From a virus: DNA of 64,000 nucleotides. Below the pieces are notes generated by a model that was not told the origin of the DNA, did not search any database, and saw nothing but the letters and a program-made list of their open reading frames with translations. Each line of letters begins with the position of its first letter. Within the stretch, counting starts at the first letter, position 1. A program made the translations under genes and the position numbers. Below are positions 7,999 to 41,044 of this stretch, one piece after another. The DNA lies in the UHGV virus genome UHGV-0125199. One strand, given 5' to 3'.

Positions 7999-9114
7999 TT
8001 ACCATGATAACCTTTTTTCTTCTACTTTTTGCATTAAATCACTCAAAATTTTCATACCTGTTTCTGTATTACATTCAGAATTAACTCTTCCTGTACTAAA
8101 TGCTTCAAGAATGATATCTCTTAAATCATTTGTTTTCAAGGCAATTACAGGAATGTTATCAATTACTGGAGAAATACCAGCGTCAATTTCTTCAATATAT
8201 TTTCCAACATCGTTGAACGCCTTTGCTCCTTTCTGTGCAAAAATTCCAGAGTACCGTTTTGTTGTTTCTTTATTAGCATGACCTAAGATTGTTTGAAGAA
8301 CATCCAAACAATCTGGATCAAATTGATTAATTTCATGCATAATATATCCAAACGTTTTTCTCATACTGTGTGTACTGATGTCTTTTAACCCATTGAAATC
8401 TGCTGCTTTCTTTAATTCATATCTGAATGACGCAGCTTGTTTTTTTATAGCCTTTTCATACTCTTCTTTTGTTCTAGCATCAATTTTCAAATCTGTATTC
8501 AAAATATCTTCTTTTAAGTGTTCCATAGGATTGATTTTTTCTGTATCACAATACCATTCCAAGTATTTCCAAACAGTCTGACTTACTGTGATTTTAATAA
8601 CTTTATCTGTCTTTTGCTCAATCAGGGTGTCCAAGATGTCCTTTTTCTTTCCATTTTCGTAATAGAAATCAGACCACTTTAAAGATAATGTGTCTCCAAT
8701 ACGTCTAGCCAACAAAATTCCAAGCATAAAGACAAGGAATTCTTTATTCTTGCTATTATCTCTAAAATAATCCATCATGTCCTTAATCTCAGATGTTTTA
8801 TAAAATGGTCTTACCAGTGTTGTTCCAGATTTTTTGGTACTACGAACCACCTTAAATGGAATGTAACATTCTCCATCAAAAATACTTTTAATCCAAATTT
8901 CTGACTTCCCGTTTGTAAATTTTAAAATATTTTCAGTAGAATCTGAATCTTTAATATCATTTTCGTCATCTTCTGTTTCAACAGGATAAAATTTTTCTTT
9001 TTCCATAATCTGATCAAGTTCTTCATTTGTATATACGTTTCCATTCATTTTCTTTTCTAATTTGTCTACTAATTTCATTATAATATACCTCCTAAAATCC
9101 CAATGCTTCTGCAA
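7999..9114 (-). CDS. tyrosine site-specific recombinase / phage integrase family
   Basis: 'ARRIGD' (Arg), 'HSMRKTFGY' (HxxR), 'LGHANKETTKRY' (catalytic Tyr) in C-terminal catalytic domain. Confidence 0.75.
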   Translation of the reverse strand: MQKHWDFRRYIIMKLVDKLEKKMNGNVYTNEELDQIMEKEKFYPVETEDDENDIKDSDSTENILKFTNGKSEIWIKSIFDGECYIPFKVVRSTKKSGTTLVRPFYKTSEIKDMMDYFRDNSKNKEFLVFMLGILLARRIGDTLSLKWSDFYYENGKKKDILDTLIEQKTDKVIKITVSQTVWKYLEWYCDTEKINPMEHLKEDILNTDLKIDARTKEEYEKAIKKQAASFRYELKKAADFNGLKDISTHSMRKTFGYIMHEINQFDPDCLDVLQTILGHANKETTKRYSGIFAQKGAKAFNDVGKYIEEIDAGISPVIDNIPVIALKTNDLRDIILEAFSTGRVNSECNTETGMKILSDLMQKVEEKRLSW

Positions 9115-9664
9115 TATCTATTTTCTTTTGTAAATATTCTAATGCAGACAATCGTTCTGCAAATTCTTTTGATTCTTTTCCATGAAAATAACTAATTTCC
9201 CATAACTCTCCATCCTCGGTTCTGTAATATTTCTGTTCCTGTGGCTTATTATTCCGTGTAAGATATTCATACACATTCCGACAATACAATTTTTCGTATT
9301 CTCCTAATGGGATATCTTCTTTTTCAAGTTCTTGCACTTTACAGCATCCTTTCATAATTTATATTCTTCGTCCATGTAACAGTCCATCTACCCTTGTTTC
9401 TGCGTAAAATTCAAAATCCATGCAGCAAATGTTATGACTATTATGCACAGAATTTTCTTCTCTTCTTATTCTCTCTTTGATTCCTCTACTTTGTTTCTTA
9501 AATAAATACTCCATGTTGTTCTTTTCTCTTCTCATAATATCCCTCCTATTTTTGCAATAAAAAAACAATCAGATATTTCCGATTGCTTTAATTGATTCAT
9601 ATTTTTTCTTATATACACTACAAAAGTCACCAGGATAATCTGATGACTTCTAACTATACACACA

Positions 9665-9802
9665 TTATCTTCCTTTTTTTGCTTTCTTCCATTCATATTC
9701 CCATCGTTCTTGATCTGACATTTTACTTGTCTTATGATCTTCTGCCAATGCAAACAAACCTCCAATAACAAGAACAATTGTTCCAAAAATAATTCCACCC
9801 AT
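9665..9802 (-). CDS. small hydrophobic peptide (45 aa, one TM) not in supplied ORF track
   Basis: strong RBS GGAGG 6 nt upstream of ATG; 'MGGIIFGTIVLVIGGLFALA...' TM helix. Confidence 0.35.
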   Translation of the reverse strand: MGGIIFGTIVLVIGGLFALAEDHKTSKMSDQERWEYEWKKAKKGR

Positions 9803-9920
9803 AATAATCCTCCAAATATTTTTTTTATTTTAAACTATCACTAAGATTTTCCAAAAAAGCACATAACATCAATAAGAAAATTCCTCCAATTAACGCTCCC
9901 ATATATATATCCCTCCTTCA

Positions 9921-10472
9921 TTATCCATTATATATGTAAGCACACTTATGTGCGACACCACTCTGTGTTCTTCCTAACTCTTTTGCAACTTCTCTATAAG
10001 ACATTCCTCTGCGTAACATGGATTTTGCATATTTTATTTCCATATCTGTCCAGTATTTTCCTTTGTTTGGTCTGTCATATGAGAATTTTTCACACCTTAC
10101 CCACGCCGGTTCCAAAGCCAATGTCGTACAATTATACCTAGACCAGTTGATAATATCCTTATGCTGTTCAGCCCATTTCCAAAAATTTTCAAGATCAATC
10201 ATATATTTTGTGCAGCACGAACATTTAAATTTACGACATGGAAGATCATATTGATTTATCCACTTCATGACTACCTTATGAGTAACATTGAAACACTCAG
10301 CAAGTTTATTCACGCTTAAAACATCATGCACCTTGCTCAAGCCTATATCCAAAGCCTTTTTAACAACTGCACGTTCTGTTCTATTAAGTCTTTTTGCTGT
10401 AATTGACACAGCCTGATTCAAATATTTCGATTCCAAATACCTAATCTCTCTGTCCGTCCATCTTTGAGCCAT
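9921..10472 (-). CDS. DNA-binding protein with two tandem HTH repeats (sigma-70 region-4/Myb-like)
   Basis: repeated 'W(T)D(R/M)EI(R/K)Y...S' followed by HTH-like 'VAKELGRTQSGVAHK' / 'ITAKRLNRTERAVVKK'. Confidence 0.45.
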   Translation of the reverse strand: MAQRWTDREIRYLESKYLNQAVSITAKRLNRTERAVVKKALDIGLSKVHDVLSVNKLAECFNVTHKVVMKWINQYDLPCRKFKCSCCTKYMIDLENFWKWAEQHKDIINWSRYNCTTLALEPAWVRCEKFSYDRPNKGKYWTDMEIKYAKSMLRRGMSYREVAKELGRTQSGVAHKCAYIYNG

Positions 10473-18899: not shown

Positions 18900-19101
18900 A
18901 ATTCAAACCTCTTTCTATAAATCCCTTACGTTTCCGACTATTTCCCAATCTGTTAAAGCATAAGTTGTATTTAGCTTTTCCAGTGGTAAACGTTCAATAT
19001 TTCCATTTCCTGTATTGTATATGTATCTGTGCATCTTTGTATCAACGATCGATTCAGTGATAACACGTTTTAAAAACTGTTTTGTCATGGTTTATTTCTC
19101 C

Positions 19102-19467
19102 TTATTTGCACAAGATCAATCCACTTTTTAACATATCCGAAAACCATTCATGGAAGTCGTGATACTCTGTCTTGTCAATAATATCCCGATAAATTTCTTT
19201 TAGCTGATTTTTTGAAAATGTTTTATCCATAGCGTCTGGGAGTGATTCTCGATTATCTTCTGAAAAGTAATATCTGTTTTCAGCTTCTTCATAATTTTCA
19301 ACAAATTCTTTCAGTTCCTCCAGCGTGTCAAAACGTTTATAAAAATCTGTTTCAATCCATTTACCATTTTTATTGATATATTTTGTAGCTGTCCATTTGT
19401 GTTTACAACAGTCACAATATACAGCAGAAAATGCAATGTTTTCATTTAATGTTTTAAAAGTATACAT
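19102..19467 (-). CDS. hypothetical protein, first gene of leftward block
   Basis: ORF; 'CDCCKHKW' Cys cluster. Confidence 0.4.
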   Translation of the reverse strand: MYTFKTLNENIAFSAVYCDCCKHKWTATKYINKNGKWIETDFYKRFDTLEELKEFVENYEEAENRYYFSEDNRESLPDAMDKTFSKNQLKEIYRDIIDKTEYHDFHEWFSDMLKSGLILCK

Positions 19468-20595
19468 TTTTACTACCTCTCTTTCTTAATATCCAAAAAC
19501 TACCCAGTAACCAACCATGCTGACTGTTAATACAATCGGCATTAACAGAGTCGTGATCTCGTTAATTCTGTTTTTCAGATTTCTTTTCTTTCTTCTCATT
19601 TTGATTACCTCTCATTCTTATCTGATTGTTTATTCTCTCTTTTATTCTCAGCTACGCAAGCCATCTGCGGAAACATTAGAAGTAAAGTCGTTTCTACTAC
19701 TCACTGCCACGGGTCTTATGCTTTTGCCCGAAACGTATCTTTCTTTGCTTGTTTTCTATGCCTTGCATAGTCAAAATAAAATAAAAACAGATTCACAAGT
19801 GATTCACAGCCTCGTTATCTAAACCTTGCTTTTCAGATTCTAAAATCCTATCTGTGATTGACTCCGCTTTTCTGCTAGTTGTTTCTGTCGTGGTATCCTC
19901 TACACGTCTGAATTATTGTTATCCTGTATTCTTCAGCCTTTTTCAGCCTTACATAAAGCCACTTCGATTCTTTATGCGGATAGTTTTATTATACGGTGTC
20001 TACCTTTTCACCCGTCCGTTGTACTCATATTTCTGGCAACGTCAACGCTCATTCTTTTTTTATATCCTTTACGAGTCGGATATATTTTTTTGTTATTCCG
20101 TATTATTATTTAAAGGACTTGCCGACTTGACAAGTCCTGATTTACAAGTTACAATAATTTATGAGTTGTCGTGTATATATTCTTTTGCTTCTTGTTCCGT
20201 TGGACACTTTACAAGTTGCATATGGTCTGAATTGTACACGACTGTTTCATTGTCGTATGTTATATAGTACATACGTTTTCACCTCCCTTCTGTTGGAAGT
20301 GAAAGTTATACGTGCTTATTTCTTTTTAGTTCCACCGCATTGCACAATTTAAAAATGTGTTGTATAACATTTTTTAGCGGTTTTTATGTGTCTACTCTGT
20401 TTTTTTCGCCTATCATCTTATCTCATGTCCTTTACATCCAATTAACAAGCTAGATGCTATATGCTCAAGTTTATACAGATACGGCTTGTTATTGTAATGC
20501 TATCCCGAATTATCGTCAGCGATACTTAACTTTTCGATTTTTCAATGTACAAAATTTTTAAAAGGAATTTTTCACAAGAACTTGTGAAACACGAC

Positions 20596-20624
20596 TTGAA
20601 AAGCGAATACTAAAATGTTAGAAT
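20596..20624 (+). promoter_or_regulatory. sigma-A-type promoter TTGAAA-17 nt-TAGAAT
   Basis: -35 TTGAAA (20596-20601), 17-nt spacer, -10 TAGAAT (20619-20624). Confidence 0.5.
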
Positions 20625-20630
20625 ATATAT

Positions 20631-20705
20631 AATCACTTTTCAAGAAGTGTTTGGAAAGAGCAGTCATTGTTTGGTTGGTAGCCTTGCGACTGCTCTTTTG
20701 TTTTC
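20631..20705 (+). ncRNA. candidate ~75-nt small RNA (two hairpins, second is intrinsic terminator)
   Basis: promoter upstream; hairpin CACTT-TTCAAG-AAGTG; terminator stem AAGAGCAGTC/GACTGCTCTT + TTTTGTTTT. Confidence 0.45.
20657..20705 (+). terminator. rho-independent terminator
   Basis: 10-bp GC-containing stem followed by T-run. Confidence 0.6.
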
Positions 20706-20718
20706 CTTTTGTGATTAT

Positions 20719-20748
20719 ATAATATCATATGTTTTTATGTTTGTCAAT
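20719..20748 (-). promoter_or_regulatory. sigma-A-type promoter on minus strand TTGACA-17-TATTAT, convergent with plus-strand promoter across the terminator hairpin
   Basis: reverse complement of 20743-20748 = TTGACA; of 20719-20724 = TATTAT; 17-nt spacer. Confidence 0.5.
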
Positions 20749-20765
20749 CATTTTTGATTATTTTT

Positions 20766-20987
20766 TTAATCTTTTTCGATTATTATTTTTGCTTTATATC
20801 CTAATGGGTTTATAATCTCATTTGTTTCATCGAGTGATAAATTCTTTTTATTTATTTTACGATTCAAATTTTGATTTACAATTCCCATTTTTTCAGCAAG
20901 TACTATTTTTTTTATGCCCGACTCTTTTATAATGTTATTGATCGTACTTGATAATTCAGCGTTGTTATTTATGTCCACTCTGATCAC
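20766..20987 (-). CDS. small HTH (Cro/XRE-like) DNA-binding protein
   Basis: 'KKIVLAEKMGIVNQNLNRKINKK' HTH-like. Confidence 0.5.
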   Translation of the reverse strand: MIRVDINNNAELSSTINNIIKESGIKKIVLAEKMGIVNQNLNRKINKKNLSLDETNEIINPLGYKAKIIIEKD

Positions 20988-21398
20988 CTCCTATTATAAT
21001 AAGGAAAGTATACCATAAAAACAGAAGTTAGTCTAACATTTCACTATTCACTTTTCAAGGTGCATTCCTTTTGTAATTGGGTATCGCTTAGCCAGAATTG
21101 ACTTTGCTTTTCAGATATGCTACACTTTAGTTGTTTAATTATTATGTATCGTGCAGTAAATCTGTACACCCTATAACAAAAACTTAGTAACCCGTGTAGA
21201 CTTATTGACTCTGCTTTACGGTGTGCATCATGGACTTATTGACTCTGCCGTGATTGCGTTGCTTTGTTTTGATGTACTTATGGTATCATAGGTTCAACCT
21301 ATAGTCAATAGGTTTTACCTATTTTGCCACTTTTACTAAATAATGAGTGTTTTTTGTTTATTGTTGTTGTGTATTTTAAATAAGAAAGTGGTGATATT

Positions 21399-21590
21399 TT
21401 GGCATATAATGCAAAAGCAGATGAGAACTATAGAAAAAAATGTAAAACAATCGGGCTCAAATTTACTTTGAATGAATTAGCTTTTTATGAAAATATTGTT
21501 AAACATTGCGAAAGCAACAACTTATCTTTACAAGGATATATAAAAGACCTGGTGCGAAAAGATCTTAATAATGATAAGGGTATAAAATGA
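21399..21590 (+). CDS. ribbon-helix-helix (CopG/Arc-like) DNA-binding protein
   Basis: 'IGLKFTLNELAFYENIVKHCESNNLSLQGYIKDLVRKDL' beta-strand + two helices pattern. Confidence 0.5.
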   Translation: MAYNAKADENYRKKCKTIGLKFTLNELAFYENIVKHCESNNLSLQGYIKDLVRKDLNNDKGIK

Positions 21591-21853
21591 AAAATAAACA
21601 CAAGAAAAATAATAATAACCCTATAGATATACCTGTACAATCTGGCATCCATGATATTTATAAAAGTGGGTTGAGTCGTAATATAGGGACTGCTGTACAC
21701 GTTGGATATTTACACTCGAATGACGACAGGCGGCACAAGTCACGTTGTATTTATTATGATAAATCAGATAAATTATGTCATTGCGGGAAAAGTGGCTGCT
21801 ATATGATGCGATGCTGTGGCAGCTCTCATTGCACAGGTTATCGAGAGTATTAG
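21587..21853 (+). CDS. Cys/His-rich small protein, translationally coupled (ATGA) to RHH gene
   Basis: 'RCIYYDKSDKLCHCGKSGCYMMRCCGSSHCTGY'. Confidence 0.4.
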   Translation: MKNKHKKNNNNPIDIPVQSGIHDIYKSGLSRNIGTAVHVGYLHSNDDRRHKSRCIYYDKSDKLCHCGKSGCYMMRCCGSSHCTGYREY

Positions 21854-21859
21854 CTGTAT

Positions 21860-22510
21860 ATAATAAGTAGTAATGCGTTTTATGAGTGCGTAACTATAGA
21901 TTACGTGTAGTGACATGTATTGTAGGTAATATGTGTGTATGGTAGTTTTTTGATAAGTAGATATGATTGTGTTTAGTGTGATATGATGTGATTTATTGCA
22001 TGATTTATGCATGGCTGCCAGGGCATATTTTAATAAATTAGGAATCATTACTGTTATTAGTGTGGTATTGTTTTTTTGTGATGTATATTTATGTATATTG
22101 TTGATAAGTTTACACGTAGTATTAAAAACTACGTGTAGTTATATGTAATACTATATCATATAGTCGTACGAGCTATATCATGTAATTTGAACATTGTTGT
22201 TGTTAGTAATAATTACTATTTTTTATTATTAAAATTTTTCACTAAAATTCCGAACTCTATAGAATCTCTTAGAAGTCCATAGATTTTACCGCTAAAATCC
22301 CGCCCGCAAAAGAGCTGTCGTTGCTACGCAAAAAAACGTCTTTTCAAAACTTATATTGTCCATAAAATCCCTATATACCGCCCCCTGTTTTCAGATCTTT
22401 ACAATCAAAACTTTTGCACTTTTCATCAATGTGTAAAAGTCCATAAAATAGCATAATAGTGTAGTATTACACCAGTCCATAATAGGGGCGGTATTAAACA
22501 TTTTTAGCGT
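21860..22510. repeat. AT-rich repeat/inverted-repeat region (possible replication origin or regulatory hub)
   Basis: ACGTGTAGT x3 (21904, 22113/22131 as 10-bp palindrome arms TACACGTAGT...ACTACGTGTA); GTCCATA(A) x4 (22275, 22358, 22439, 22485); TATACCGCCCC (22374) inverted with GGGGCGGTAT (22495). Confidence 0.45.
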
Positions 22511-22539
22511 CTGTTGTACATCAAATATAGCAGGTATGG

Positions 22540-23026
22540 GTTCTATCCACACCTCACTACCAAAATTTCGACCTCCGATTTCAACACCAAAATTTTCATC
22601 TTCCACTTCAAAAATCCCCAAAATTACCCAAAAATACTTCGGGAACTCTCTCGACCAACAAAGCATAAACACTGCGTTTCTACCATTCTAAACAGTCCAA
22701 AAATAACCAAAATCCACCACAATATCCATTCAAACCCCAAGCAAACTCTTACCGTTACTGCATTTTCCCGAACTCAACTTATATTCCAAAAAATTACATA
22801 TAAAACACACTATCAAAATCCATAAAACCACGCCACCTTATCCCTCAGTGTGCCCACATAAATACTGGCATCTCCCGGTATAAAAACATCACACAAAATT
22901 ACCTCTCTACCGAAGTACCATATTTTCAAATTTATTAACGCAAAAAAATAAGCAGCCAATTCCTAAGATAAGTCCTTAAGAACCAACTGCTATTATTTAT
23001 AATCACCCTATAATCATAAAATACCT
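22540..23026. other. ~490-nt strongly G-depleted (C/A-rich) tract on plus strand, no convincing ORF
   Basis: long stretches lacking G: 'ccaaaatttcgacctccgatttcaacaccaaaattttcatcttccacttcaaaaatccccaaaattacccaaaaatac...'. Confidence 0.5.
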
Positions 23027-23455
23027 TCAATAATATTTATTAAATATATCCCCATCTATATCACTAATATCATGAACCGGTACCTCAGTTCCATTTTCAA
23101 ATATTACAACATTTCTGTATTCGTGTACCTTCTTCACTCTCCCACTCATTGTAATATACTTTCCACCATCTTTCTTTAAATCTTTTTCAAAATATGTGAT
23201 TCTGACATCCGGATCAACATCACCGTCATCTAAACATTTTCTTAAAATACTCAATCTCTCATTCAGCCTATCCAAAACATCCTCATCAAATTCAATCCTT
23301 TTATCTGTTAATCTTGCAGTCTCTTTAATTTCTGCATCATAACCTGTCAATGCAGCAAATGGAGAAAATTGAGCAGCTCTATCTCGCATACTCATTTGAG
23401 GATATTTTTTAGAGACAAAATGTGGCAGATCAATAATATCATCGTATTTACCCAT
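23027..23455 (-). CDS. YolD-like protein (UmuD-functional-analog family found with Firmicute Y-family polymerases)
   Basis: immediately downstream of Y-family polymerase; 'MSMRDRAAQFSPFAALTGYDAEI' YolD-like N-terminus. Confidence 0.55.
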   Translation of the reverse strand: MGKYDDIIDLPHFVSKKYPQMSMRDRAAQFSPFAALTGYDAEIKETARLTDKRIEFDEDVLDRLNERLSILRKCLDDGDVDPDVRITYFEKDLKKDGGKYITMSGRVKKVHEYRNVVIFENGTEVPVHDISDIDGDIFNKYY

Positions 23456-23464
23456 AACACACCC

Positions 23465-24988
23465 CTATGCTTTATGTCCACCAATTTGATTATTCCTATC
23501 TATTGCAGTAGCTCCTTCTTGTAGACTCATGCCTTTTAAAATTGCATTTTTCCCAAATTTTTTCTTGATATCCAAGACAGCTTTCTGAATATCTTTTTCT
23601 TTTTTAAGTTGTTCCTGGTCTACTGCATTTTCCTTTTCAGCAATCATATCAAATAAATTAAGCTGTTCATATCTATCCTTTTTCGCTTCCTTTTCGCTGA
23701 TCACATGATTTGCAGACATATTGATTCTTCTGACAAGTAAATTTTCGTCTACAATTCTACTGAATAAATCAAGCACAGCTCTTACAATCACGCTAGTAGA
23801 AGACGTATAACTATCTAAATTTACTGTTCCATGAGCATGTTTTGGAATCTTTCTCCCATATTGATCAAAAGAGAACTCACCTTTATACTTACTCATTCTG
23901 GAAGAATCTAATAGATTTTCTCTATCGTAGCCAATCGTTAATACAATCTGATCCGTTACAAGATTCTTACTAACCAAATCTAAGACCAGCATCTCAGTCA
24001 TTTCACGTACAATAATTTTCGTTTTATCAAAATCAGTTCCACAGTGTAAAACCTGTCCGCTTCCAATACTATTGCTCTCCGGCTTATATGCTTTTATATC
24101 TGAAATTGTAACCGGTTCATAACCCCATGCATGGTCAATCAAAAGCTCTGTATTTTTACCAAACATTCTACGCAGCAAGTCTTCATTATAATAATCTGAC
24201 TCTTTTCCAAGAGAACATCTTGCGATATCGCCCATTGTATATAGTCCTACAGATTCTAATTTTTTAATATACCCTCTACCTACTCGCCAAAAATCAGTCA
24301 ATGGTTTATGTTCCCATAGCTTCTCTCGATATGACTTTTCATCCAATTCTGCAATTCTCACACCATTTTCATCTGCAGGTATATGTTTGGCAACAATATC
24401 CATTGCTATTTTACAAAGATACAAATTAGTTCCTATTCCTGCGGTTGCAGTAATTCCAGTTGTATTCAAGACATCCAATATCATCTTCTGTGCAAGTTCT
24501 TTTGCGGATAATCCATACGTATTCAAATAAGAAGTCACATCCATAAATACTTCATCAATAGAATATACATGGATATCTTCAGGAGCAACATATTTCAAAT
24601 AGATATTATAAATCCTTGTGCTATATTTCATATAAAAAGCCATACGTGGTGGAGCCACAATATAATCAACTTTTAAATCCGGATTTGTATCAAGAATTTT
24701 TTTACTATATGACTGTCCGGGAAACTCATTCTTTTTCAATCGATATAATCTTGTTGCATTAATTTCTTGCACCCGCTGCACAACCTCAAATAATCTTGGT
24801 CTTCCAGATATACCATATGATTTCAAAGACGGCGTTACTGCAAGACAAATTGTTTTCTCTGTACGACTGTTGTCTGCAACAACTAAATTCGTATCCATTG
24901 GATCCAAGCCACGTTCTATACACTCTACTGATGCGTAAAAACTTTTTAGATCAATCGCAATATATGACTTATTATTCATGCAGCACAC
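23465..24988 (-). CDS. Y-family DNA polymerase (UmuC/DinB/UvrX-like translesion polymerase)
   Basis: 'YIAIDLKSFYASVE' catalytic Asp motif region; palm/finger 'SIDEVFMDVT'. Confidence 0.75.
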   Translation of the reverse strand: MCCMNNKSYIAIDLKSFYASVECIERGLDPMDTNLVVADNSRTEKTICLAVTPSLKSYGISGRPRLFEVVQRVQEINATRLYRLKKNEFPGQSYSKKILDTNPDLKVDYIVAPPRMAFYMKYSTRIYNIYLKYVAPEDIHVYSIDEVFMDVTSYLNTYGLSAKELAQKMILDVLNTTGITATAGIGTNLYLCKIAMDIVAKHIPADENGVRIAELDEKSYREKLWEHKPLTDFWRVGRGYIKKLESVGLYTMGDIARCSLGKESDYYNEDLLRRMFGKNTELLIDHAWGYEPVTISDIKAYKPESNSIGSGQVLHCGTDFDKTKIIVREMTEMLVLDLVSKNLVTDQIVLTIGYDRENLLDSSRMSKYKGEFSFDQYGRKIPKHAHGTVNLDSYTSSTSVIVRAVLDLFSRIVDENLLVRRINMSANHVISEKEAKKDRYEQLNLFDMIAEKENAVDQEQLKKEKDIQKAVLDIKKKFGKNAILKGMSLQEGATAIDRNNQIGGHKA

Positions 24989-25039
24989 CTCCTACTATAT
25001 GTATCATAACAAAAAATTTAAAATTTATCCATATAAAAT

Positions 25040-25053
25040 CGAAAGTATGTTTG
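25040..25053. promoter_or_regulatory. possible degenerate LexA/Cheo-like box (CGAAAGTATGTTTG) upstream of Y-polymerase operon
   Basis: 11/14 match to Firmicute CGAACATATGTTCG consensus; located 52-65 nt upstream of start codon. Confidence 0.3.
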
Positions 25054-25086
25054 CTTTGTTATGTGTCTGTATCAAATAAAACAAAA

Positions 25087-25131
25087 AGAGCAGATTAGAA
25101 TTCTAATGAACTCTTCTGCTCTTTCTGTTTT
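25087..25131. terminator. bidirectional intrinsic terminator
   Basis: AGAGCAGA...TCTGCTCT stem flanked by A-run upstream and T-run downstream. Confidence 0.55.
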
Positions 25132-25305
25132 TAGCAACTATAAAATAAATTATAATTACTATTTATTACTACTCTAAAACACCTACAATTTACAATTATA
25201 ATACTATACTTTCATATTTTTATCAAGATATTTTTACATATTTCGACAAAATCCCCTTTTTTTCTAAAAACACATCAAATTAATTAGATTGTACTACCGC
25301 TATAT

Positions 25306-25803
25306 TTAAAACTCAATTCTACAATGCAACATTATCTTTAATGGTTTATACATTTTTGAATGAAAAATTTGCGGATCAGGAAGATCAAATTCTTGATCCA
25401 CTCCTAAATCTGTTTCTCTAAGTACAGTCCCTACAACCTTCATTGACATTCCATTTTCTTCAGCTAATTTATTTATATGATGAACATAGCCATCATAATA
25501 TCCGATTCCTTCAAATTTAAATTGTACTTTTGTTTCTATCATTCTGTTTTCAGAAAATGACAAATCCTCTACAATAGGACGAGAAAATTTATTTAAATAA
25601 CATTCCTCATAGAAAGAAATAATCCTTTTGCCATCTTCTGTAATATACTTACCCTCTTTTGCCTTTTCTTTTATATCGCTTTTAACTTCCATGAAATCAT
25701 ATTCAGCAAACTTCATACCATATTGATAATCATCTTGATACTTTTCTGTAGCAGCTTCCTCCGGTGTTTTTGATATTTCATTTAATTCATCCAAAAAACT
25801 CAT
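25306..25803 (-). CDS. hypothetical protein (165 aa)
   Basis: ORF; terminator downstream. Confidence 0.45.
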   Translation of the reverse strand: MSFLDELNEISKTPEEAATEKYQDDYQYGMKFAEYDFMEVKSDIKEKAKEGKYITEDGKRIISFYEECYLNKFSRPIVEDLSFSENRMIETKVQFKFEGIGYYDGYVHHINKLAEENGMSMKVVGTVLRETDLGVDQEFDLPDPQIFHSKMYKPLKIMLHCRIEF

Positions 25804-26360
25804 AGTACTACTCTCCTATTCCTTTTGATATTTACATAGTAGCACAATACTATGAATTTTTATAGAAATTTTTAAATCGTTAAGAGAATTAAAGTATGAA
25901 ACAAAGAAACCGTTCAAATATTTTTAATAATAAAGGGAGAAATGATATGAGCAAATTGTAAATAATGATTTAAGAAAATAAGGATTTAATGAAGAAGCAT
26001 AAAAGAAATTATAAAAAATTTTTCTATTTCAATTTAAATTGTATCTTTGCGTCAGCAAAGACTTTGCGAAGCAAAGTGAAACGGAGACACGAAGAAAGGG
26101 TCGCCTGCGGCTCTTTCTGAAGTGGATCCAACATTACCTAGATCTCTCTATATATAAGGAATTACGAATTTATATCAAAAAAATTATTTATAAAGAGAGA
26201 ATTATTAACTGGGGGAAGGAAGACCAAATTCATAAGTCTTACTACGCACCTTGTTCGCCAAGGCTCACAATCTGCTAGTGCGACTAAATGAATTATGCTC
26301 TTTTTTGCACTTCCCCCAGACCCCCTTCGCGCACTATAAAATGGATAAAAAATTCAATTA

Positions 26361-26390
26361 AAATCTCTCTAAACCCTTATAAACACTGGG
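26361..26390 (+). repeat. 30-bp direct repeat copy 1 (AAATCTCTCTAAACCCTTATAAACACTGGG)
   Basis: identical copy at 26461-26490; degenerate copy at 33025-33047. Confidence 0.8.
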
Positions 26391-26416
26391 TTTTTGTCGA
26401 AAAACATCCTTTAAAG

Positions 26417-26446
26417 TCTCCCTATATTATATATATATTAGGGAGA
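26417..26446. repeat. perfect 30-bp palindrome TCTCCCTATATTATATATATATTAGGGAGA between the direct repeats
   Basis: self-complementary 8-bp arms around (TA)n core. Confidence 0.8.
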
Positions 26447-26460
26447 AATGAAAGGATGCG

Positions 26461-26490
26461 AAATCTCTCTAAACCCTTATAAACACTGGG
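26461..26490 (+). repeat. 30-bp direct repeat copy 2
   Basis: identical to 26361-26390. Confidence 0.8.
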
Positions 26491-26548
26491 AAAATTGGCA
26501 TTTTAGGTGTGCAAAAAACGATAAAAAACTAATTTAAGGAGAAAACAC

Positions 26549-27652
26549 GTGAACAAATTAAATATCAAAAAAGGGAAAATTACAGAAAAAAAATTAGTAG
26601 AGCTATATGGGAGTGATGCGCAGAAAAAATCATATAAAGAAAATGGACGTTTTATAAGTAACTATAAAAAGACTTTACTTACAAAAATGTCTCGATATTG
26701 TAACATTGAAGATTTAGGTGGCAGAACATATAGAATCAAAAAAGTATATGACTATCCTCTTCCATCAAATTTCAATAAGATGACAAAATCATTATATCAA
26801 TATATTGTTCCTCTTCTACTTACTAACTTAATTAATGGTCACGACGAAAATAACAAAATAGATATAACAGTTGGAAAATGGGCGAGAGAAATTAATATGG
26901 TAAATAAAAATTATAATCTTGTTAAATACAACAGAGAAGATACGAGTAAAGAAACGCAGTGTTCTTTAGATACTATAAATGAATTTTATGACAAAGCTGA
27001 TGACATGATTGAATGGTACATAACAAATGCACTTGATTATTTAAAATCTGCAGGATTAGTTATCTGGAGAGAGGTTTATAGAGTAAACGAAGAAATATCA
27101 AGCGGCAAAAATATTATTGATGAAAACGGGAATATACACGTTGATATTTCTATTGATAGTCATCAAGCATCTGAAGATGAAATGAACTACTACTCTCATT
27201 GTGTTTCAATTGCTGATAAAGCAGCAAAAATAGAAAATGCTGGAGAACGATATTATAGTAAAAAATCAAAATTATTTGGAGAAGTATTAAAGAAAGAACT
27301 ATATAAAAAGAAAATCAAATGTGTTTTCAAAACATATGAAGCATATTATGTAGATCTTGACAAATGCAATTTTATATTAAAACAGTTTGGTAAATTCAAA
27401 ATGAATAATTTAATAAGTGAATTCAATAAAGAGTTTACAGATTTATTGGTTGGAAATGCGGAAAAAAGGTTTGATAAAAATCCGGATAAATATTTTTCTT
27501 ATGCAGAAAAGGATGATTACAGCTTATGTTTTCAAAATTTATGCGAAATAACAATTGATAAAAATACAGAATATCTTGGAAACAGAATAAGAGAAAAAAC
27601 AATTAATGATGATTATACTCTAAAAATCACATCATCAAGGAAAGGAAAATAG
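26549..27652 (+). CDS. hypothetical protein (367 aa), GTG start, translationally coupled to downstream UvrD-like helicase
   Basis: stop 5 nt before helicase ATG; no recognisable motif by eye. Confidence 0.5.
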   Translation: MNKLNIKKGKITEKKLVELYGSDAQKKSYKENGRFISNYKKTLLTKMSRYCNIEDLGGRTYRIKKVYDYPLPSNFNKMTKSLYQYIVPLLLTNLINGHDENNKIDITVGKWAREINMVNKNYNLVKYNREDTSKETQCSLDTINEFYDKADDMIEWYITNALDYLKSAGLVIWREVYRVNEEISSGKNIIDENGNIHVDISIDSHQASEDEMNYYSHCVSIADKAAKIENAGERYYSKKSKLFGEVLKKELYKKKIKCVFKTYEAYYVDLDKCNFILKQFGKFKMNNLISEFNKEFTDLLVGNAEKRFDKNPDKYFSYAEKDDYSLCFQNLCEITIDKNTEYLGNRIREKTINDDYTLKITSSRKGK

Positions 27653-30210: not shown

Positions 30211-32982
30211 GTGAGTAAAATTAGTAAATACGGAATTAAGATTAAAAATATAAAAGCAGGTATGATTTATGATGTAAATATTGGAGTGAGAGACTATTTC
30301 ACTTACACTGAAGCGATGTTAAATAATAGTTTGTTTAGCTATCACCTTAAGAAAAATGGTATAAAAATTTATAAAAAACCAAAGTCTGATAAAGAATCTA
30401 CGCGTGATATAATATGTTTAGACTTTGATTTTGGAAGTCGTTCTTACGAAGAAGAGAAAAAAAGACTCGAAAAATTAGAAAACAATGCAACGACAATAGA
30501 TGATAAAAATAAAATAAAATATTTACTAAAAGAAATAGGGAAAAAAGAAAAACTATACAATGGTAAAAATAGAGATAAAATCAGAGAAGATTTTTATCAG
30601 AATGGAGTAGATATTTCATATAGACACACCGATAAAAAAACAAAAAAAGAAGTTGTTGAAACAATACATTATCTTATGCTATTTAGAACGAGTGCAAAAG
30701 CTAAAGTTGGACAAGTTATTTTTATAAATGAAAACTTATATGATGATGCATACGATTGGCTTACAATCGGATTAGGAAAAAAAATGTCTTATGATAACGC
30801 AAAAATAGTTGAGATGTCTGCTTATGCACCACTTACCACATCTACTATTGTTGGAACATTAAAAATTCCGGTAGAAGACATTTTAATATTAAAAGATCAG
30901 GATTCATTTTTTTCTACATTTACGAGTGTAGTAAAAGCTGAAGAGTATATTGATAGTTCTGGAAACAAAAAGAAAAAATGTATTGTTGAATCAGAAGAAA
31001 GAGAAGTTAAAAACACACTATGGGATGGTATGGGTATTATTGAATCATCAATTTTGCCGGGATGGATAAATGGGATGGCTTTATTACGAAATCATTTATT
31101 TAAGATGTGCGGTTTTAAAGGACATGTACAATTATTCTTTAAAGATTGGTGCAAAAAAAATAATCATGACTATAATACATATCAAGTTGAAGATATGTTT
31201 GGATGTAAACATTATTTAAAAGACATCAAGATTATCACAACAGATAATTCTATAAAGTGGAAAAAATTTATTGATATTATGGGCGGAACATTATCTTCTG
31301 CTTATGAATATTGGTGTGATAAAATTCGCGAAGATGGCAACATATGGGGAGTTGTAAAAACAGATCATCAAAGTAAATTTGAAAACTCGCAGCAGTTAAG
31401 TTATCAAATGATAAACACTCTTCCGTGCACTAAAGAAGACGTGTATGACATCGCATCAGATACAGTTAAATATATCGAAACATTGAAAACAGATAATGTT
31501 GAATTTGAAAAGTTTTTACGAAAATATGCAAATGAAATAAACCATTATCAAATGTTGGCTGATTTATACAGACATAATCCTGATTTCGCCAATTGTGGAT
31601 GGTTCAGAAATGAAAAGAAAAAAATTATTTTTGAATATGTTAACAGAATGAGAAAAGGCAAAATATTAGTAAATGGAGATAATTTGACTGTCTGTGGAAA
31701 TCCTTATGCTCTTCTACTCTATTCAGTAGGTGAAAATTGGGAAGAAGATCCTACATTTTCAAAAGAAGAAAATAGTATTCAATGTTATACAAGAAGATTT
31801 AGTAACGATGAATATCTATGCGGTTTTAGGAATCCACATAATTCACCGAATAATGTATGTCACTTTCATAATGTATATAGTCAGGAAATGTCTAGATATT
31901 TTGATTTTAGCAAAAATATTATGGCTGTAAATTGTATAGGAACTGATGTCCAAGATAGAATGAACGGGGAAGATTTCGATTCAGATTTTAATCTAGTCAC
32001 TAATAATCCAGTGATGGTTAAATATGCCGAAATTTGTTATAGAGATTTTCCAACCATTGTTAATGATCTCAAAGAAAGCGGAATCACATACAAGAATACA
32101 TTATTAGAATATGCACGTATGGATAATAAATTTTCTAAATCCAGAATTGGCATTGGCTATTCCAGTAATCTTGCACAATTAGCCTTGACTTATTATTGGA
32201 CAGAGTTGCAAAAGGATAATCCTAATGAAGAACGATTGCATGAGTTATATGATAATTTTGTGATTTTATCTGTTCTTGCTCAAGTTATAATTGATGGATG
32301 TAAAAGGGAATACGAAATTGATGGAATGAAAGAAATCGACAGGATCAGCAAAATGCCATGTATGAAATTAACAAAGCAAGTAGTTGATGAAAACGGTAGA
32401 ATTAAAAGTGTTAAATTTGATTTTCCGAAGTTTATGAAATATACAAGAGCTATAAAAACAACAAAAAACGGGAAAGAAATTCCACAAAAGGAAATACACG
32501 AAAAAAAAGTGAAATTGAAAAATAGAATCAACCCATCTCTTGTTTGCCCTATGAATTGGTTAGAGGAATGCTTAGACACTATCAAACCTGCGGCAAATTC
32601 ACACTCAACCCCTATTAGTGATTTTTTTATAAAAATGCCTGGCAAACCTAATAACAGACAAATGACAAAAATTAGGAGTCTTATTGAAGAATATGACTTA
32701 TTTGTTAAAAATTTACATATAACAAATGACGATGACGATATAATAATCGAAGAAATGATTTCTAAATCCGAAAAATTATTAGACAGCCTATGCAAAATTA
32801 AAGTTGGAAATATAGTAACTATAAATAGAATGATAGAGGTGGCTCTAGGTCTCGATAAAGGAATCGGAAATGGATCCAAAACGAAGAACATAAACTTAAA
32901 ATATTCAAGAAAAATTTTAAATTATTTACACAAAATGGACAAAGATAAATTTTTATTGAATTTTAAACCAAAACAAATTTAG
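30211..32982 (+). CDS. large hypothetical protein (923 aa); candidate divergent two-double-psi-beta-barrel RNA polymerase (YonO/QDE-1-like) - inference only
   Basis: 'NRMRKGKILVNGD' (aa ~478-490, resembles beta-subunit 'RHGNKG' Lys motif), 'GFRNPHNSP' (aa ~538, cf. beta-prime 'NRAPTLH'), 'GEDFDSDFN' (aa ~586-594, cf. 'NADFDGD'). Confidence 0.35.
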   Translation: MSKISKYGIKIKNIKAGMIYDVNIGVRDYFTYTEAMLNNSLFSYHLKKNGIKIYKKPKSDKESTRDIICLDFDFGSRSYEEEKKRLEKLENNATTIDDKNKIKYLLKEIGKKEKLYNGKNRDKIREDFYQNGVDISYRHTDKKTKKEVVETIHYLMLFRTSAKAKVGQVIFINENLYDDAYDWLTIGLGKKMSYDNAKIVEMSAYAPLTTSTIVGTLKIPVEDILILKDQDSFFSTFTSVVKAEEYIDSSGNKKKKCIVESEEREVKNTLWDGMGIIESSILPGWINGMALLRNHLFKMCGFKGHVQLFFKDWCKKNNHDYNTYQVEDMFGCKHYLKDIKIITTDNSIKWKKFIDIMGGTLSSAYEYWCDKIREDGNIWGVVKTDHQSKFENSQQLSYQMINTLPCTKEDVYDIASDTVKYIETLKTDNVEFEKFLRKYANEINHYQMLADLYRHNPDFANCGWFRNEKKKIIFEYVNRMRKGKILVNGDNLTVCGNPYALLLYSVGENWEEDPTFSKEENSIQCYTRRFSNDEYLCGFRNPHNSPNNVCHFHNVYSQEMSRYFDFSKNIMAVNCIGTDVQDRMNGEDFDSDFNLVTNNPVMVKYAEICYRDFPTIVNDLKESGITYKNTLLEYARMDNKFSKSRIGIGYSSNLAQLALTYYWTELQKDNPNEERLHELYDNFVILSVLAQVIIDGCKREYEIDGMKEIDRISKMPCMKLTKQVVDENGRIKSVKFDFPKFMKYTRAIKTTKNGKEIPQKEIHEKKVKLKNRINPSLVCPMNWLEECLDTIKPAANSHSTPISDFFIKMPGKPNNRQMTKIRSLIEEYDLFVKNLHITNDDDDIIIEEMISKSEKLLDSLCKIKVGNIVTINRMIEVALGLDKGIGNGSKTKNINLKYSRKILNYLHKMDKDKFLLNFKPKQI

Positions 32983-33024
32983 TGTTTATGCACAAAAATT
33001 GCCGAATTATTTTGTCAAAAGTTA

Positions 33025-33047
33025 CTAAACCCCTTGTAAATAGTGGG
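33025..33047 (+). repeat. degenerate third copy of the 26.36-kb direct repeat (CTAAACCCCTTGTAAATAGTGGG)
   Basis: 18/23 identity to core of DR; followed by GTTTT as in DR1. Confidence 0.5.
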
Positions 33048-33925
33048 TTTTCAAGAAATCAACTTCGTCCGTAATATGGAAGGATGAGAGTTTTGCTTAT
33101 ATTCAAAATTCTTGAGATGAAATCAAGACTCTTAAGACGACAAACGCTATTGCCAAAGCGTTTAATAAATATGGAGATATATCTATAATAAAGCCCCTAT
33201 TGAAAGGGGCTTGGGCTTTGCCCAATATAAGCACTTGCTTATAAATACAAATAACTCAGTGCAGATTGGCTTGTCACCATGCTGAGAATATATGAATAGT
33301 GAGTTGCGGTATAATACGATAGTTTTATACTGCAGCTTCTGGAATGATGTGAATCATAAACAGAAAGACGGAAACCGTCAAAACTAAATATATGTACAAT
33401 AATATATTGCCGTAAAACGCAATTGCCAGATCGCTGACATAATAGACGACTCCAGTGGAGTAATAATCGTGATGCCTGTATCGGTGGAATGTTACAGAGA
33501 GATAAGTAGCGAAAATCCAAATAAGTCAGTTGCGTCGTTGATCGGAAGAAATTCCAGTATAAGATCTGTCGAATGTACGAGTAGCCCAAAGTGACGTGAG
33601 ATTAATACATAAAGAACAAAAAAATTAAATCTTATTATGAATTTTCTTAATACGCTGAATGACATGGGTGAAAGTTTCTCGTAATCAGTCGAGGCTACAA
33701 TTGCTGTTTATCAGATGTAAAGGAAGTCTAAGGGTAGCTCCCTTATTCTCAGCCCTTTACAAGTAGTGGCGGAATATTATGACGATATATTTGAGTAGGA
33801 AGAAGTTCCATTTGTATTTATAATCAAGTGCTTATGCGCGCACTTGACGATTTCTAATCTCCTTTTCAGTTAGTAATAGCATTGCTGTTCTGGTAGTGCT
33901 GTTGCTAACATCTTAGGAGTATTTT

Positions 33926-33997
33926 AGCCCCATCGCCAAGCGGTAAGGCACAGGACTTTGACTCCTGCATTCAGTAGTTCGAATCTACTTGGGGCTG
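33926..33997 (+). tRNA. tRNA-Gln (anticodon TTG)
   Basis: acceptor AGCCCCA/TGGGGCT, D-arm, anticodon stem CAGGA/TCCTG loop CTTTGAC, T-arm AGTAG-TTCGAAT-CTACT, discriminator G. Confidence 0.75.
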
Positions 33998-34181
33998 CTA
34001 TCATCCGAAGTGTTGCGCTGACCGTCAATCAGTGGCGCATAAAAACCTATCCCAGTATAAATCCAGGTGACACTGGCTTATATGAAGATACGCTCTAGGT
34101 TTACTACGTTTTATATAACTATTCACATAACAATTATTTTGTCGTCCTTGTGGATGGGTGTTTTGGACGAGCAAACAATAA

Positions 34182-34272
34182 GCTGCATTAATCCTCTGTG
34201 GTAAGGGGTCGATCTTGAAAAATCGATAGTAGCCACTTATGCGGTGTCTAAGTTCAAATCTTAGGTGCAGCG
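34182..34272 (+). tRNA. tRNA-like element with long variable arm, possibly degenerate tRNA-Ser(TGA)-like; anticodon region forms 5-bp stem with 8-nt loop CTTGAAAA
   Basis: acceptor GCTGCAT/GTGCAGC, U8A9, T-arm CTAAG-TTCAAAT-CTTAG, discriminator G; anticodon arm non-canonical. Confidence 0.35.
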
Positions 34273-34277
34273 TTATA

Positions 34278-34351
34278 TGCAGGCGAGTGGAACGGATTAC
34301 TACGTCAGACCCATAATCTGAAAATACTGGGTTCGACTCCCAGGCTCTGCA
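34278..34351 (+). tRNA. tRNA-Met(CAT)-like element, probably degenerate (C33, imperfect acceptor stem)
   Basis: D-arm GTGG/CTAC, anticodon stem TCAGA/TCTGA loop CCCATAA, T-arm CTGGG-TTCGACT-CCCAG; acceptor pairs only 6/7 with a bulged G. Confidence 0.35.
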
Positions 34352-34628
34352 ATACTCTCCCACTGTGGAGAAATATACAACGAAAGGAATGTTTTATCAT
34401 AGTTCTTATTACAGACAAAGAATGTAAATTTTTGTTAATCAAAGGATGGAAATGGAGAGATCATATTCATCGCACTGTATCCGGAGCAAACAAAAAATAT
34501 GCAACAGAAAATTATCGATTGATGCAAGATTTAGAAAATTTTAGATCACAGTCGATTAAAGAAACAATTCAGATTAAAAAACGTAAAAAATAACTAGAAT
34601 TAAACTAGAGGAAAGGTGGTTCACCTTA

Positions 34629-36668: not shown

Positions 36669-37868
36669 GTGGACGATATAGTACATAACTATAAAAGATT
36701 TGATGGTGAAAGTGATGATGAACTCATCCTGAGAATCTGTAATGATAAAGAAAATATCGGTACATGGAATGATGTTGCTGCAGTTCTAAACTCTCTTCTT
36801 GACTGTAACTACACTGAATCGGCATATAGAAAGAAAGTACAGTATTTCCGAAAGGTTCTTGATGCTAATCAGTCTAAATTCACAGACGGTGCAGCACAAT
36901 TAAAAGAACTAAAGGAAGAGCGTATTCTTTTAGAGAAAGAACGTGTCAAAACTCGTGATGAACGAAATGAGTATCGTAGATTGATTCGTGAAGAAGCACG
37001 TAAGGAATCTTATAAAGAACAGATTTTAAGATCCATTTCAGAATATCACGGACAACCATTAGATTATGATAAAAGAAAACAGTTTAATGGAATTTTAAAA
37101 TCAGATAATGATTTAGTAATTTCTGTAACAGATATTCATGCAGGAATTGAAATTGATAACTGGTTTAATAAATACAATACAGAAGTTATGTATGATAGAT
37201 TTAGACAGTACCTGGATAAAATTTTTGAAGTCTATTTACGGCACGGTTCTGAAAATATCTATGTAATTATAAGTGAGTTGGTCTCAGGATTGATTCACAA
37301 CTCACTTCGGATTGAAAGTAATCAAAATCTAATTGAGCAATTCTTATCCGTATCGGATTGTATTTCACAATTTTTATCTGAACTTAGTTATAAATTTAAT
37401 GAAGTTCATGTTTATGTTTGTCCTGGAAATCATTCTAGGTTACATGCAAAAAAGGAAGAATCTTTAAAAGGTGAAAATATGGACTGTCTTGCTATTCCAT
37501 TTTTGCAAGCCAAATTGCAGAACTTTAAGAATATCGAATTTCACGAAAATAAAATTGATGAATCAATTGCAATGTTTTCTGTTAGAGGAACGAAAATTTT
37601 TGGAGTCCATGGAGACAAAGATGACCCTAAAACGGTTGTGCAGAAACTATCGCTTATGACACAAATACGTCCAAATATTTTATATATGGGTCATCGTCAT
37701 GTAAATGCGATGTCTACTGTTTATAATGTGAAAATTTTACAATCAGGTTGTATTTCTGGAACAGATAACTATTGCTTGGATAACCGATTGCAAAATAAAC
37801 CAGAACAATTAATTTCAGTTATTAATAATGATGGATTAGATTGTGTGTACGATGTTAGGTTTCACTAG
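36669..37868 (+). CDS. calcineurin-like metallophosphoesterase (phosphatase/SbcD-like nuclease fold) with N-terminal coiled-coil
   Basis: 'VTDIHAG' (motif I), 'GNHSR' (motif III), 'GVHGDKDD', 'MGHRHV' (motif V/VI). Confidence 0.65.
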   Translation: MDDIVHNYKRFDGESDDELILRICNDKENIGTWNDVAAVLNSLLDCNYTESAYRKKVQYFRKVLDANQSKFTDGAAQLKELKEERILLEKERVKTRDERNEYRRLIREEARKESYKEQILRSISEYHGQPLDYDKRKQFNGILKSDNDLVISVTDIHAGIEIDNWFNKYNTEVMYDRFRQYLDKIFEVYLRHGSENIYVIISELVSGLIHNSLRIESNQNLIEQFLSVSDCISQFLSELSYKFNEVHVYVCPGNHSRLHAKKEESLKGENMDCLAIPFLQAKLQNFKNIEFHENKIDESIAMFSVRGTKIFGVHGDKDDPKTVVQKLSLMTQIRPNILYMGHRHVNAMSTVYNVKILQSGCISGTDNYCLDNRLQNKPEQLISVINNDGLDCVYDVRFH

Positions 37869-41020: not shown

Positions 41021-41044
41021 TGGAGAGCTGTGCTGCTCTCCTAT

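Follow-up and report, generated by a model that had tools for sequence, protein, structure and literature searches.

What might a phage gain from an apparently gene-free stretch in which one strand contains so little guanine? The stretch in question lies at positions 22540-23026 of a 64,000-nt piece of the virus genome UHGV-0125199, and this whole piece is referred to here as the window. A first, sequence-only reading had described the stretch as G-depleted on the plus strand, extreme in strand asymmetry, rich in CCAAAA units and free of any convincing ORF, and had offered as explanations a non-coding RNA, a transcription-insulating region, a tract associated with packaging (pac), or an array of protein-binding sites.

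Composition and layout of the zone

The 487 nt comprise 189 A, 142 C, 124 T and 32 G on the plus strand, which corresponds to 6.6% G relative to a window mean of 15.7%. Three runs in or beside the stretch contain no G at all (63 nt at 22578-22640, 61 nt at 22771-22831, and 84 nt at 22990-23073). Low G content by itself is not unique to this position, since only 29 of the 487 nt in the coding stretch 9446-9932 are G; the genes on the left side of the window are encoded on the minus strand and have C-poor sense strands. The strand asymmetry claimed for the stretch is indeed extreme. Positions 22542-22941 hold the highest C count per 400 nt (124, with a window-wide runner-up of 108). A base-skew scan across the window also places both minima there, GC skew at -0.664 and keto skew at -0.39, the latter far below the next value of -0.20. 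The opposite extreme adjoins at 21743-22234 (GC skew +0.505, keto skew +0.275), where the mirror arm forms the window maximum of both measures.

The tract carries CCAAAAT-type repeats that run in one direction and read RATTTT(A)KGG on the minus strand. Seven copies of CCAAAA fall in the bin 22501-23000, compared with two or fewer in every other 500-nt bin, in agreement with the repeats noticed in the sequence-only reading, and TTTTG occurs 11 times on the minus strand of the tract versus 2.6 ± 1.5 times in shuffled sequences. A/T-tracts (T-tracts) are found in local clusters with a spacing of 9-13 nt, and no single period dominates across the whole tract.

Read along the minus strand, the features listed in Table 1 follow one another as terminator T1, tract (~390 nt), boundary element H2, core, oriented ATTTTATGGAC-type repeats, hairpin, and mirror arm. 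Together they make up an ORF-free island between convergent operons, here called the zone, which measures ~1.2 kb in the window and 1.3-2 kb in divergent relatives. The tract had been placed downstream of the leftward YolD/Y-pol operon, and correctly so: the operon ends at T1, a terminator conserved in relatives, and the tract lies beyond it. H2 is kept as GTGTGGAT[AG]GAAC in nearly all relatives and includes a DnaA-box-like CTATCCACA with one mismatch (22543-22551, plus strand). The core, the best-conserved part between divergent groups, has an inverted repeat formed by CCGCCC (22378-22383) and GGGCGG (22486-22491). One arm of the palindrome bears a -10-like CATAAT that faces the tract, TAAAAT(T/C)CC units accompany the oriented repeats, and the hairpin at the skew switch also occurs in two relatives (L015 and L021). 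The G-rich strands of both arms run 5′ to 3′ toward the centre. Neither arm is AT-rich, for GC contents of 36-38% exceed the mean of the window.

Table 1 Features of the zone and its flanking operon in the window
Feature	Position	Strand	Description
Y-family polymerase (Y-pol) gene	23465-24988	-	Pfam IMS
YolD-like gene	23027-23455	-	
Intrinsic terminator T1 of the YolD/Y-pol operon	22941-22991	-	18-pair stem 22991-22951, then T-run
Tract proper, ORF-free	22532-22941		plus strand A 37, C 30, G 7, T 25 (%)
Boundary element H2	22554-22532	-	AGGTGTGGATAGAACCCATACCT / GGTGTGGATAGAACCCATACC; terminator-like hairpin
Conserved core	22338-22531		ATGTTTAATACCGCCCC, GC-rich inverted repeat, ATTTTATGGAC motifs
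Palindrome	22451-22472		GTGTAATA-CTACAC-TATTATGC; 12-bp arms in relatives
Oriented AGTCCATAAAAT-type repeats	22240-22500	+	at 22274, 22357, 22438, 22474
11-pair hairpin at skew switch	22110-22138		TTACACGTAGT-ATTAAAA-ACTACGTGTAG
Mirror arm	21854-22110		plus strand C 5%, G 23%, T 44%

The tract is non-coding, as had been supposed. Across 11 close relatives, variable columns of a 103-aa plus-strand ORF are spread over the three codon positions as 11:7:11, and small minus-strand ORFs in the tract have an equally flat distribution. No ORF of at least 70 aa is common to the zone and its divergent relatives (group B), and a PHROG search of the zone returned no match. A protein-coding gene or pseudogene is rejected on these grounds.

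Conservation and base substitutions among relatives

The zone was recovered from 19 IMG/VR contigs, most of them 90-166 kb long, and from 38 of 43 pattern-matched metagenome stretches, mostly human-gut assemblies; the remaining five have no H2 and appear to be chance matches. The tract is present in all true relatives whose upstream flank is long enough for measurement, about 50 independent assemblies in total, so the concern that it might be an assembly artefact or be absent from close relatives no longer stands. In the relatives, the minus strand of the tract has 5-9% C and 24-31% G. The observation of a G-poor, non-coding stretch is thus confirmed for every relative found. When the zone was compared with 50,697 phage records by nucleotide BLAST, neither the near nor the distant mode gave a match, and scanning GTDB genomes for the palindrome pattern yielded a single one, in a Chloroflexota MAG, that we judged to be due to chance.

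The presence, length and composition of the tract are conserved while its sequence diverges faster than synonymous sites. Outside the surroundings of the core, no DNA identity can be detected between divergent groups. The tract changes at least as fast as the Y-pol gene does at third codon positions (0.75 vs. 0.88 identity, for example, in L010-L013), but the spacing from T1 to H2 stays at 371-394 nt. Members of an AATTTT/TTTTGG/TTATGG family are enriched over dinucleotide shuffles in five of five divergent tracts, giving the minus-strand consensus above, while exact CCAAAA/TTTTGG hexamers fall to one or two in some relatives. Islands that contain C are conserved as well (ACTTCGG, CGAAGT and GTCGAAATTTTGG). 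The mirror arm of the relatives is at least 400 nt long and ends at a second, inward-facing terminator. In more distant Y-pol/YolD loci (L038-L043, 55-68% identity), YolD is followed immediately by genes and the tract is missing, which indicates that the tract is not a feature of the Y-pol cassette. Enterocloster phages that encode YonO have an AT-only intergenic region without a skewed tract.

The composition of the tract was compared with four-fold degenerate sites on the sense strand of 44 window genes (A 44, C 8, G 11, T 37%). The minus strand of the tract has A 25, C 7, G 30 and T 37%. Since its C content is close to that of the four-fold sites, the poverty in C on the minus strand, and hence in G on the plus strand, is neutral background. 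What departs from it is the minus strand's surplus of G, which replaces A there and appears on the plus strand as an excess of C. The emphasis of the sequence-only reading on G depletion was therefore misplaced, although the depletion itself is real.

Substitutions among 25 distinct close relatives, with low-frequency alleles presumed to be derived, bear on how this excess persists. Derived alleles in the tract include 26 G>A versus 8 A>G, and the other transitions are 7 C>T and 12 T>C. The neighboring Y-pol and YolD genes, counted at third codon positions, are in balance, with 13 changes of each kind, G>A and A>G. This difference suggests that the G excess on the minus strand (C on the plus strand) is held by selection against mutation pressure, which argues against a purely mutational origin. 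If C excess rather than G poverty is the selected property, candidate mechanisms narrow to a binding motif that contains G/C or to a C-rich RNA.

Comparison with the SPβ packaging region

Several genes mark the phage as SPβ-like: its terminase shares 44% identity with the terminases of SPβ, phi3T and Goe11-14, an exonuclease (36669-37868) matches YonJ (E 7e-20), and a 923-aa protein (30211-32982) aligns collinearly with the YonO RNA polymerase (E 0.001). The order of zone, YonO-like gene, exonuclease and terminase parallels the SPβ order of yonP-yonR intergenic region, yonO, yonJ and yonF. A three-gene Y-pol cassette and two further genes stand between the zone and the late genes here, and a divergent region at 25804-26548 is an alternative positional equivalent of the yonP-yonR region.

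The genome opening point and the pac site of SPβ have been located in the yonP-yonR intergenic region, with packaging toward yonP (bioRxiv 10.1101/2021.11.22.469490; PMC8270828); the pac region is attributed to Fink & Zahler 1982, as cited, and is treated by Kohm et al. (bioRxiv 10.1101/2021.11.22.469490). The published supplement gives a 251-bp pac fragment, with packaging starting from its position 251 (bioRxiv 10.1101/2021.11.22.469490), and this fragment corresponds to L044 24531-24781. Adjoining fragment position 1, in the direction of packaging, we found a 341-nt tract (L044 24190-24530, positions 64190-64530 of the SPβ record) with 7.3% C and 27.6% G that constitutes the GC-skew maximum of the 50 kb examined. 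A mirror arm extends beyond the SPβ-type cut, with plus-strand G at 8.9% in SPβ and 2.5% in BUCT083. Two independent records agree with this: that of BUCT082 has its first base exactly at the opening point and closes with a 300-nt arm of 5% C that runs 5′ to 3′ into the cut, and that of BUCT083 is opened exactly at the junction of tract and block. SPβ, BUCT082 and BUCT083 thus have in common the layout of C-poor tract, 251-nt block, cut, and mirror arm. SPβ and phi3T can be aligned over tract and block (78%), and the alignment ends at the cut. The repressor site of SPβ, SPBRE, is found 30-50 nt in front of yonP, which puts the SPβ tract upstream of the yonP promoter rather than in its leader.

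The resemblance to the window extends over several levels. In both phages the regulatory genes are flanked, on the side of YonO and the late genes, by a long region without ORFs, in which a C-poor (7%), G-rich tract of 340-410 nt is followed by an inverted-repeat block of 215-250 nt and a mirror arm. G-rich strands run 5′ to 3′ toward the centre or cut in both, and the combination of tract, block and mirror arm with inward G-rich strands was found in the window, SPβ, BUCT082 and BUCT083 alike. At a finer scale, the SPβ junction of tract and pac block, GGGTGTGGAAATGGAAGT/GCTATGGG (the slash marking the junction), resembles H2 of the window; SPβ GGGTGTGGAAATGGAAGT/GCTATGGGTACAT can be set beside GAGGTGTGGATAGAACCCATACCT/GCTATATTTGATGTACA in the window, and ATGTAAATATACCCCC beside ATGTAAAATACCCCC in group B. 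The junctions share the motifs GTGTGGA... / GCTAT..GTACA and ATGT-N4-5-TACCCCC, and a palindrome with arms of 12-13 bp follows a few nucleotides further on.

Smith-Waterman comparison of the window with the SPβ pac region scored 46 relative to 35.4 ± 4.3 for shuffled sequences (z ~2.5), and an nhmmer profile of the clade's core had no match in SPβ. With the SPβ region as the query against the 64-kb window (E values 2.7-3.1), the best match, 22609-22506 on the minus strand, is collinear across the junction of tract and block at an E value of only 2.7. Sequence homology to the SPβ pac region is suggestive and not statistically established. There are also differences in arrangement. The SPβ region is divergent, between yonP and yonR, whereas the zone sits between convergent terminators and is separated from the late genes by the Y-pol/YolD cassette. 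The SPβ tract is A/G-rich and that of the window T/G-rich, and the centre is longer and mosaic here, with DnaA boxes in relatives. Finally, the cut is a mapped one in SPβ and a predicted one in the clade of the window.

We tentatively propose, with a probability of about 0.4, that the tract acts as DNA and represents the late-gene-side arm of a pac or genome-opening region, the counterpart of the C-poor tract of SPβ. Among the explanations listed at the outset, a pac-associated tract and a protein-binding array are best supported because Bacillus SPβ-like phages carry an equivalent tract beside a mapped opening point; the shared layout, the polarity, the mirror arm and the oriented repeats favor them, and the initial interpretation is in this part supported. 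The oriented CCAAAAT-type repeats and locally phased A-tracts would form a polar platform beside the cut, on which the terminase, probably its small subunit, for which the ORF at 43566-44285 is a candidate (YonG in SPβ), would assemble, and this assembly would fix the direction of packaging. Packaging might then proceed from the centre, through core and tract, toward the late genes. We infer a cut at ~22220-22380 in the window phage only by analogy with SPβ, and terminase is the presumed binding partner of the tract.

Short oriented repeats or bent DNA flank the cleavage region in known pac sites such as the hexamers of P1 and pacL/pacR of SPP1, where they bind the small terminase, and the zone resembles these in its short oriented repeats and clusters of A-tracts. 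The P1 and SPP1 sites span ~160-270 bp in or beside the small-terminase gene, whereas 21.6 kb separate the zone from the large-terminase gene. The SPβ region itself has been reported to have no similarity to the SPP1 pac (PMC8270828). An independent analogue is the SRL array of T7, compared in detail below, which has the polarity of the tract relative to a DNA end.

Several observations run against the packaging proposal. DnaA-box triplets at the centre of most relatives suggest an origin, Enterocloster phages with YonO do without the skewed tract, and the hexamer count is low in some relatives. To these are added the lack of significant homology to SPβ, the position between convergent terminators, and the alternative equivalent region at 25804-26548. 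Ends of metagenome contigs, taken as a proxy for DNA termini, fall 79, 134, 339, 443, 495 and more nucleotides past the palindrome and do not cluster near the core; they were set aside.

Pac regions and repeat arrays next to DNA ends are already known. The mirror-image pair of skewed arms around an SPβ-type opening point and its conservation in uncultured gut phages are not described in the papers cited here; the published SPβ work covers the 251-bp pac fragment and not the skewed arms (bioRxiv 10.1101/2021.11.22.469490). The arms would thus be an undescribed part of the SPβ pac region and can be tested directly in SPβ, a tractable phage. If the packaging proposal is true, strong local strand asymmetry would show where packaging begins in SPβ-like phages ranging from those of Bacillus to uncultured phages of gut Firmicutes, and pac sites of large prophages could be predicted from sequence alone where virion data are not available.

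Competing explanations

A transcriptional role, though unlikely, is the main rival. The tract would serve as a Rho-loading (rut-like) leader or insulator, in which Rho stops transcripts that leave the core before they enter the flanking operons in antisense (in SPβ, yonP-yonO). Plus-strand RNA of the tract would be long, C-rich (30% C, 7% G) and nearly unstructured, with a minimum free energy of -37.7 kcal/mol over 426 nt and a folding z-score of -2.1, and it contains the 80 nt or more expected of a rut site. Both arms are C-rich when read outward, C on the plus strand is apparently maintained by selection, and the -10-like hexamer in the palindrome arm (CATAAT here, TATAAT in SPβ) faces the tract. 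In group B, the opposite strand of T1 would contain C·A mismatches, which makes the terminator unidirectional. In addition, ncr1052, a 183-nt RNA of B. subtilis 168, comes from between yonR and yonP and is directed toward yonP, so that it corresponds to the C-rich strand (PMC2965217), but it is of low abundance (2 cDNA reads), and its coordinates do not fix its exact position relative to the SPβ tract. A scan of seven loci found no sigma-A-type promoter at a conserved position on either strand, and one candidate -10 is lost in L001-type relatives. Moreover, ~400 nt is several times what a rut site requires, and mirrored arms on either side of a probable DNA end are not a property of rut sites.

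The DnaA boxes raise the distinctly less probable idea that the tract flanks a DnaA-dependent replication origin at the centre, where skewed arms would aid unwinding, R-loop formation or helicase loading. Perfect box triplets (TTATCCACA-N3-TGTGGATAA-N12-TGTGGATAA) stand exactly at the skew switch in most relatives; the cluster is found in L001/3/4/5/6/7/9/15/16, and some relatives have two modules. A one-mismatch box (TTATCCACT) occurs 14 nt past the SPβ cut, and terminators insulate the zone on both sides. However, the window has no box modules and only two one-mismatch boxes near the zone, from a window-wide count of 34 that does not differ significantly from expectation (24 ± 5), and L010-L014 are likewise without the modules. 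The polarity of the skew is reversed relative to a bidirectional origin, as the G-rich strands point to the centre, and the GC content of the arms is not that of an AT-rich element.

We regard as highly improbable a C-poor, GU-rich non-coding RNA of ~400 nt on the minus strand, running between T1 and H2. The tract is framed by T1 and the terminator-like hairpin of H2, ACTTCGG and CGAAGT are conserved, and the palindrome varies on the minus strand through G·U-type intermediates (23 G·U cells vs. 5 mismatches). This last pattern is expected from the G/T composition bias alone and was set aside as evidence of RNA covariation. A search of 19000-27000 against Rfam 15 (E ≤ 1) returned two weak, irrelevant matches and nothing relevant, and the zone contains no tRNA or tmRNA. 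Minus-strand RNA folds no better than shuffled sequences (z-score -1.4), and the AT-rich palindrome is the sole helix in the consensus fold across relatives, with none inside the tract. H2 and a UUCG-like hairpin are conserved as sequence without compensatory base-pair changes, no promoter follows T1, and the sequence evolves faster than synonymous sites. The non-coding RNA entertained by the sequence-only reading is accordingly unsupported as a structured RNA. GGA motifs, considered for a CsrA sponge, are by hand count only about as frequent as composition predicts, and the idea was dropped.

It is no more credible that the tract is a functionless, non-adaptive footprint of deamination, accumulated while strands are single-stranded because their 3′ ends fall at a recurrent DNA end or because transcription displaces them, for although the skew is mirror-symmetric around a probable DNA end, the tract outpaces third codon positions and its minus-strand C equals that of four-fold sites, its G>A to A>G ratio is out of the mutational equilibrium seen in the neighboring genes, the distance from T1 to H2 is kept, the motif family is enriched in all divergent tracts, and the SPβ and phi3T tracts can be aligned where the surrounding intergenic sequence cannot.

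A wider form of the packaging proposal, which we think quite improbable, holds that phages with defined packaging ends share mirror arms as a polar device for end processing. Resection after terminase cutting or injection would leave G/T-rich, C-poor, unfoldable 3′ tails; these may favor loading of RecA or a phage recombinase, or may control a host end-processing nuclease in a Chi-like manner, and would drive circularisation through terminal redundancy. The SRL short-repeat array of T7, reportedly described by Dunn and Studier in 1983 and lying beside the terminal repeat, could be a diverged example of the same principle. Its function is to our knowledge unsettled, and a search of the literature available here on that function yielded nothing useful. 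T7 belongs to a phage family with packaging machinery unrelated to that of the window phage, and the repeats at its right end (SRR) are in direct rather than mirror orientation and unskewed, unlike the mirror arm. We checked the SRL sequence itself (T7 170-345), which is A/C-rich and G-poor (A 39, C 31, G 11, T 19), lies just internal to the genome end, and has its C-rich strand reading away from that end. Oriented repeats and G poverty are common to both phages, with units of CCTAAAG in T7 and CC(C)AAAA(T) in the window, present as 8 exact heptamers in 176 nt and as 7 exact plus degenerate units in 410 nt, respectively.

Composition of the zone centre

In relatives of this SPβ-like phage, the centre of the ORF-free zone carries modules built of three DnaA boxes; the relative L003 has two copies, in which the boxes are perfect (see table). 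The triplet modules in L003, and likewise those in L001, L004, and L007, are located exactly at the skew switch, as is the one DnaA-box module that L009 and L015 each contain. No such module is present in the window or in L010–L014, so that the zone centre is mosaic. The 9–11-bp hairpin at window 22110–22138 recurs in L015 (relative position ~2785–2815), where its loop is inverted relative to the Y-pol side (TTTTAAT against ATTAAAA), suggesting an inversion or template switching at this hairpin.

Features in and around the zone palindrome

One arm of the zone palindrome (window 22451–22472) contains a −10-like hexamer facing the tract, which reads CATAAT in the window and TATAAT in the relative L014, and the SPβ counterpart (L044, ~24592–24636) carries a perfect TATAAT on the yonP-directed strand. 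This hexamer could belong to a promoter that points outward and is controlled by a palindromic operator. Five metagenome matches to the palindrome pattern, including one from a TARA marine sample, lack the conserved boundary element H2 82–83 nt upstream (L065, L086, L088, L090, and L093), and are probably chance matches.

In the alignment of loci from relatives (A1, columns 36–82), the five L001-type sequences (L001, L003, L008, L012, and L017) share an insertion of 47 nt that contains C, AAAATTAGGCTCGCAATCCCATTAGCTTTAGCTCGTGGGTAGTTCAC; it immediately follows the stop codon of YolD and precedes the terminator T1. In another relative, L021, the C-terminal end of a putative transposase gene and the element's terminus are inserted just before T1 and replace the YolD-side sequence; read in the direction of the palindrome, they lie ~500–650 nt upstream of it. 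By eye, the gene end looks like an IS66-type transposase. The tract itself is intact in L021.

Other features of the window

Few ORFs occur in the gap 3′ of the YonO-like gene, which contains a second palindrome and a tRNA gene. In SPβ, an ORF-free 1.7-kb gap between yonN and yonK contains the site where YonO transcription starts, as well as an ncRNA that is not annotated (PMC5467207).

The direct repeat in the divergent intergenic region lies upstream of the late (+) gene cluster and may have a regulatory role or form part of a promoter. Two IMG/VR contigs start near this region. The true start of the head-fibre-like ORF is probably further downstream. One SPβ protein with the tyrosine-recombinase fold, MrpR/YopR, is the phage's master repressor and not a recombinase.

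Coordinates of features in the window and in the relative L003
Feature	Location	Remark
Three-DnaA-box module TTATCCACA-N3-TGTGGATAA-N12-TGTGGATAA	L003 8808–8857 and ~9000–9042	Perfect boxes
IS605-type OrfB/TnpB-like gene; two genes with a tyrosine-recombinase fold	Window 103–1035 (−), 7999–9114 (−), 39544–40578 (+)	
Direct repeat AATCTCTCTAAACCCTTATAAACACTGGG	Window 26362–26390 and 26464–26492	In divergent intergenic region 25804–26548
Second palindrome GTATAATACGATAGTTTTATAC	Window 33309–33330	In gap 33000–34600
tRNA-Gln	Window 33926–33998	In gap 33000–34600
Predicted tRNA-Glu	Window 41054–41127	Overlaps 5′ end of ORF 41030–42121 (head-fibre-like)
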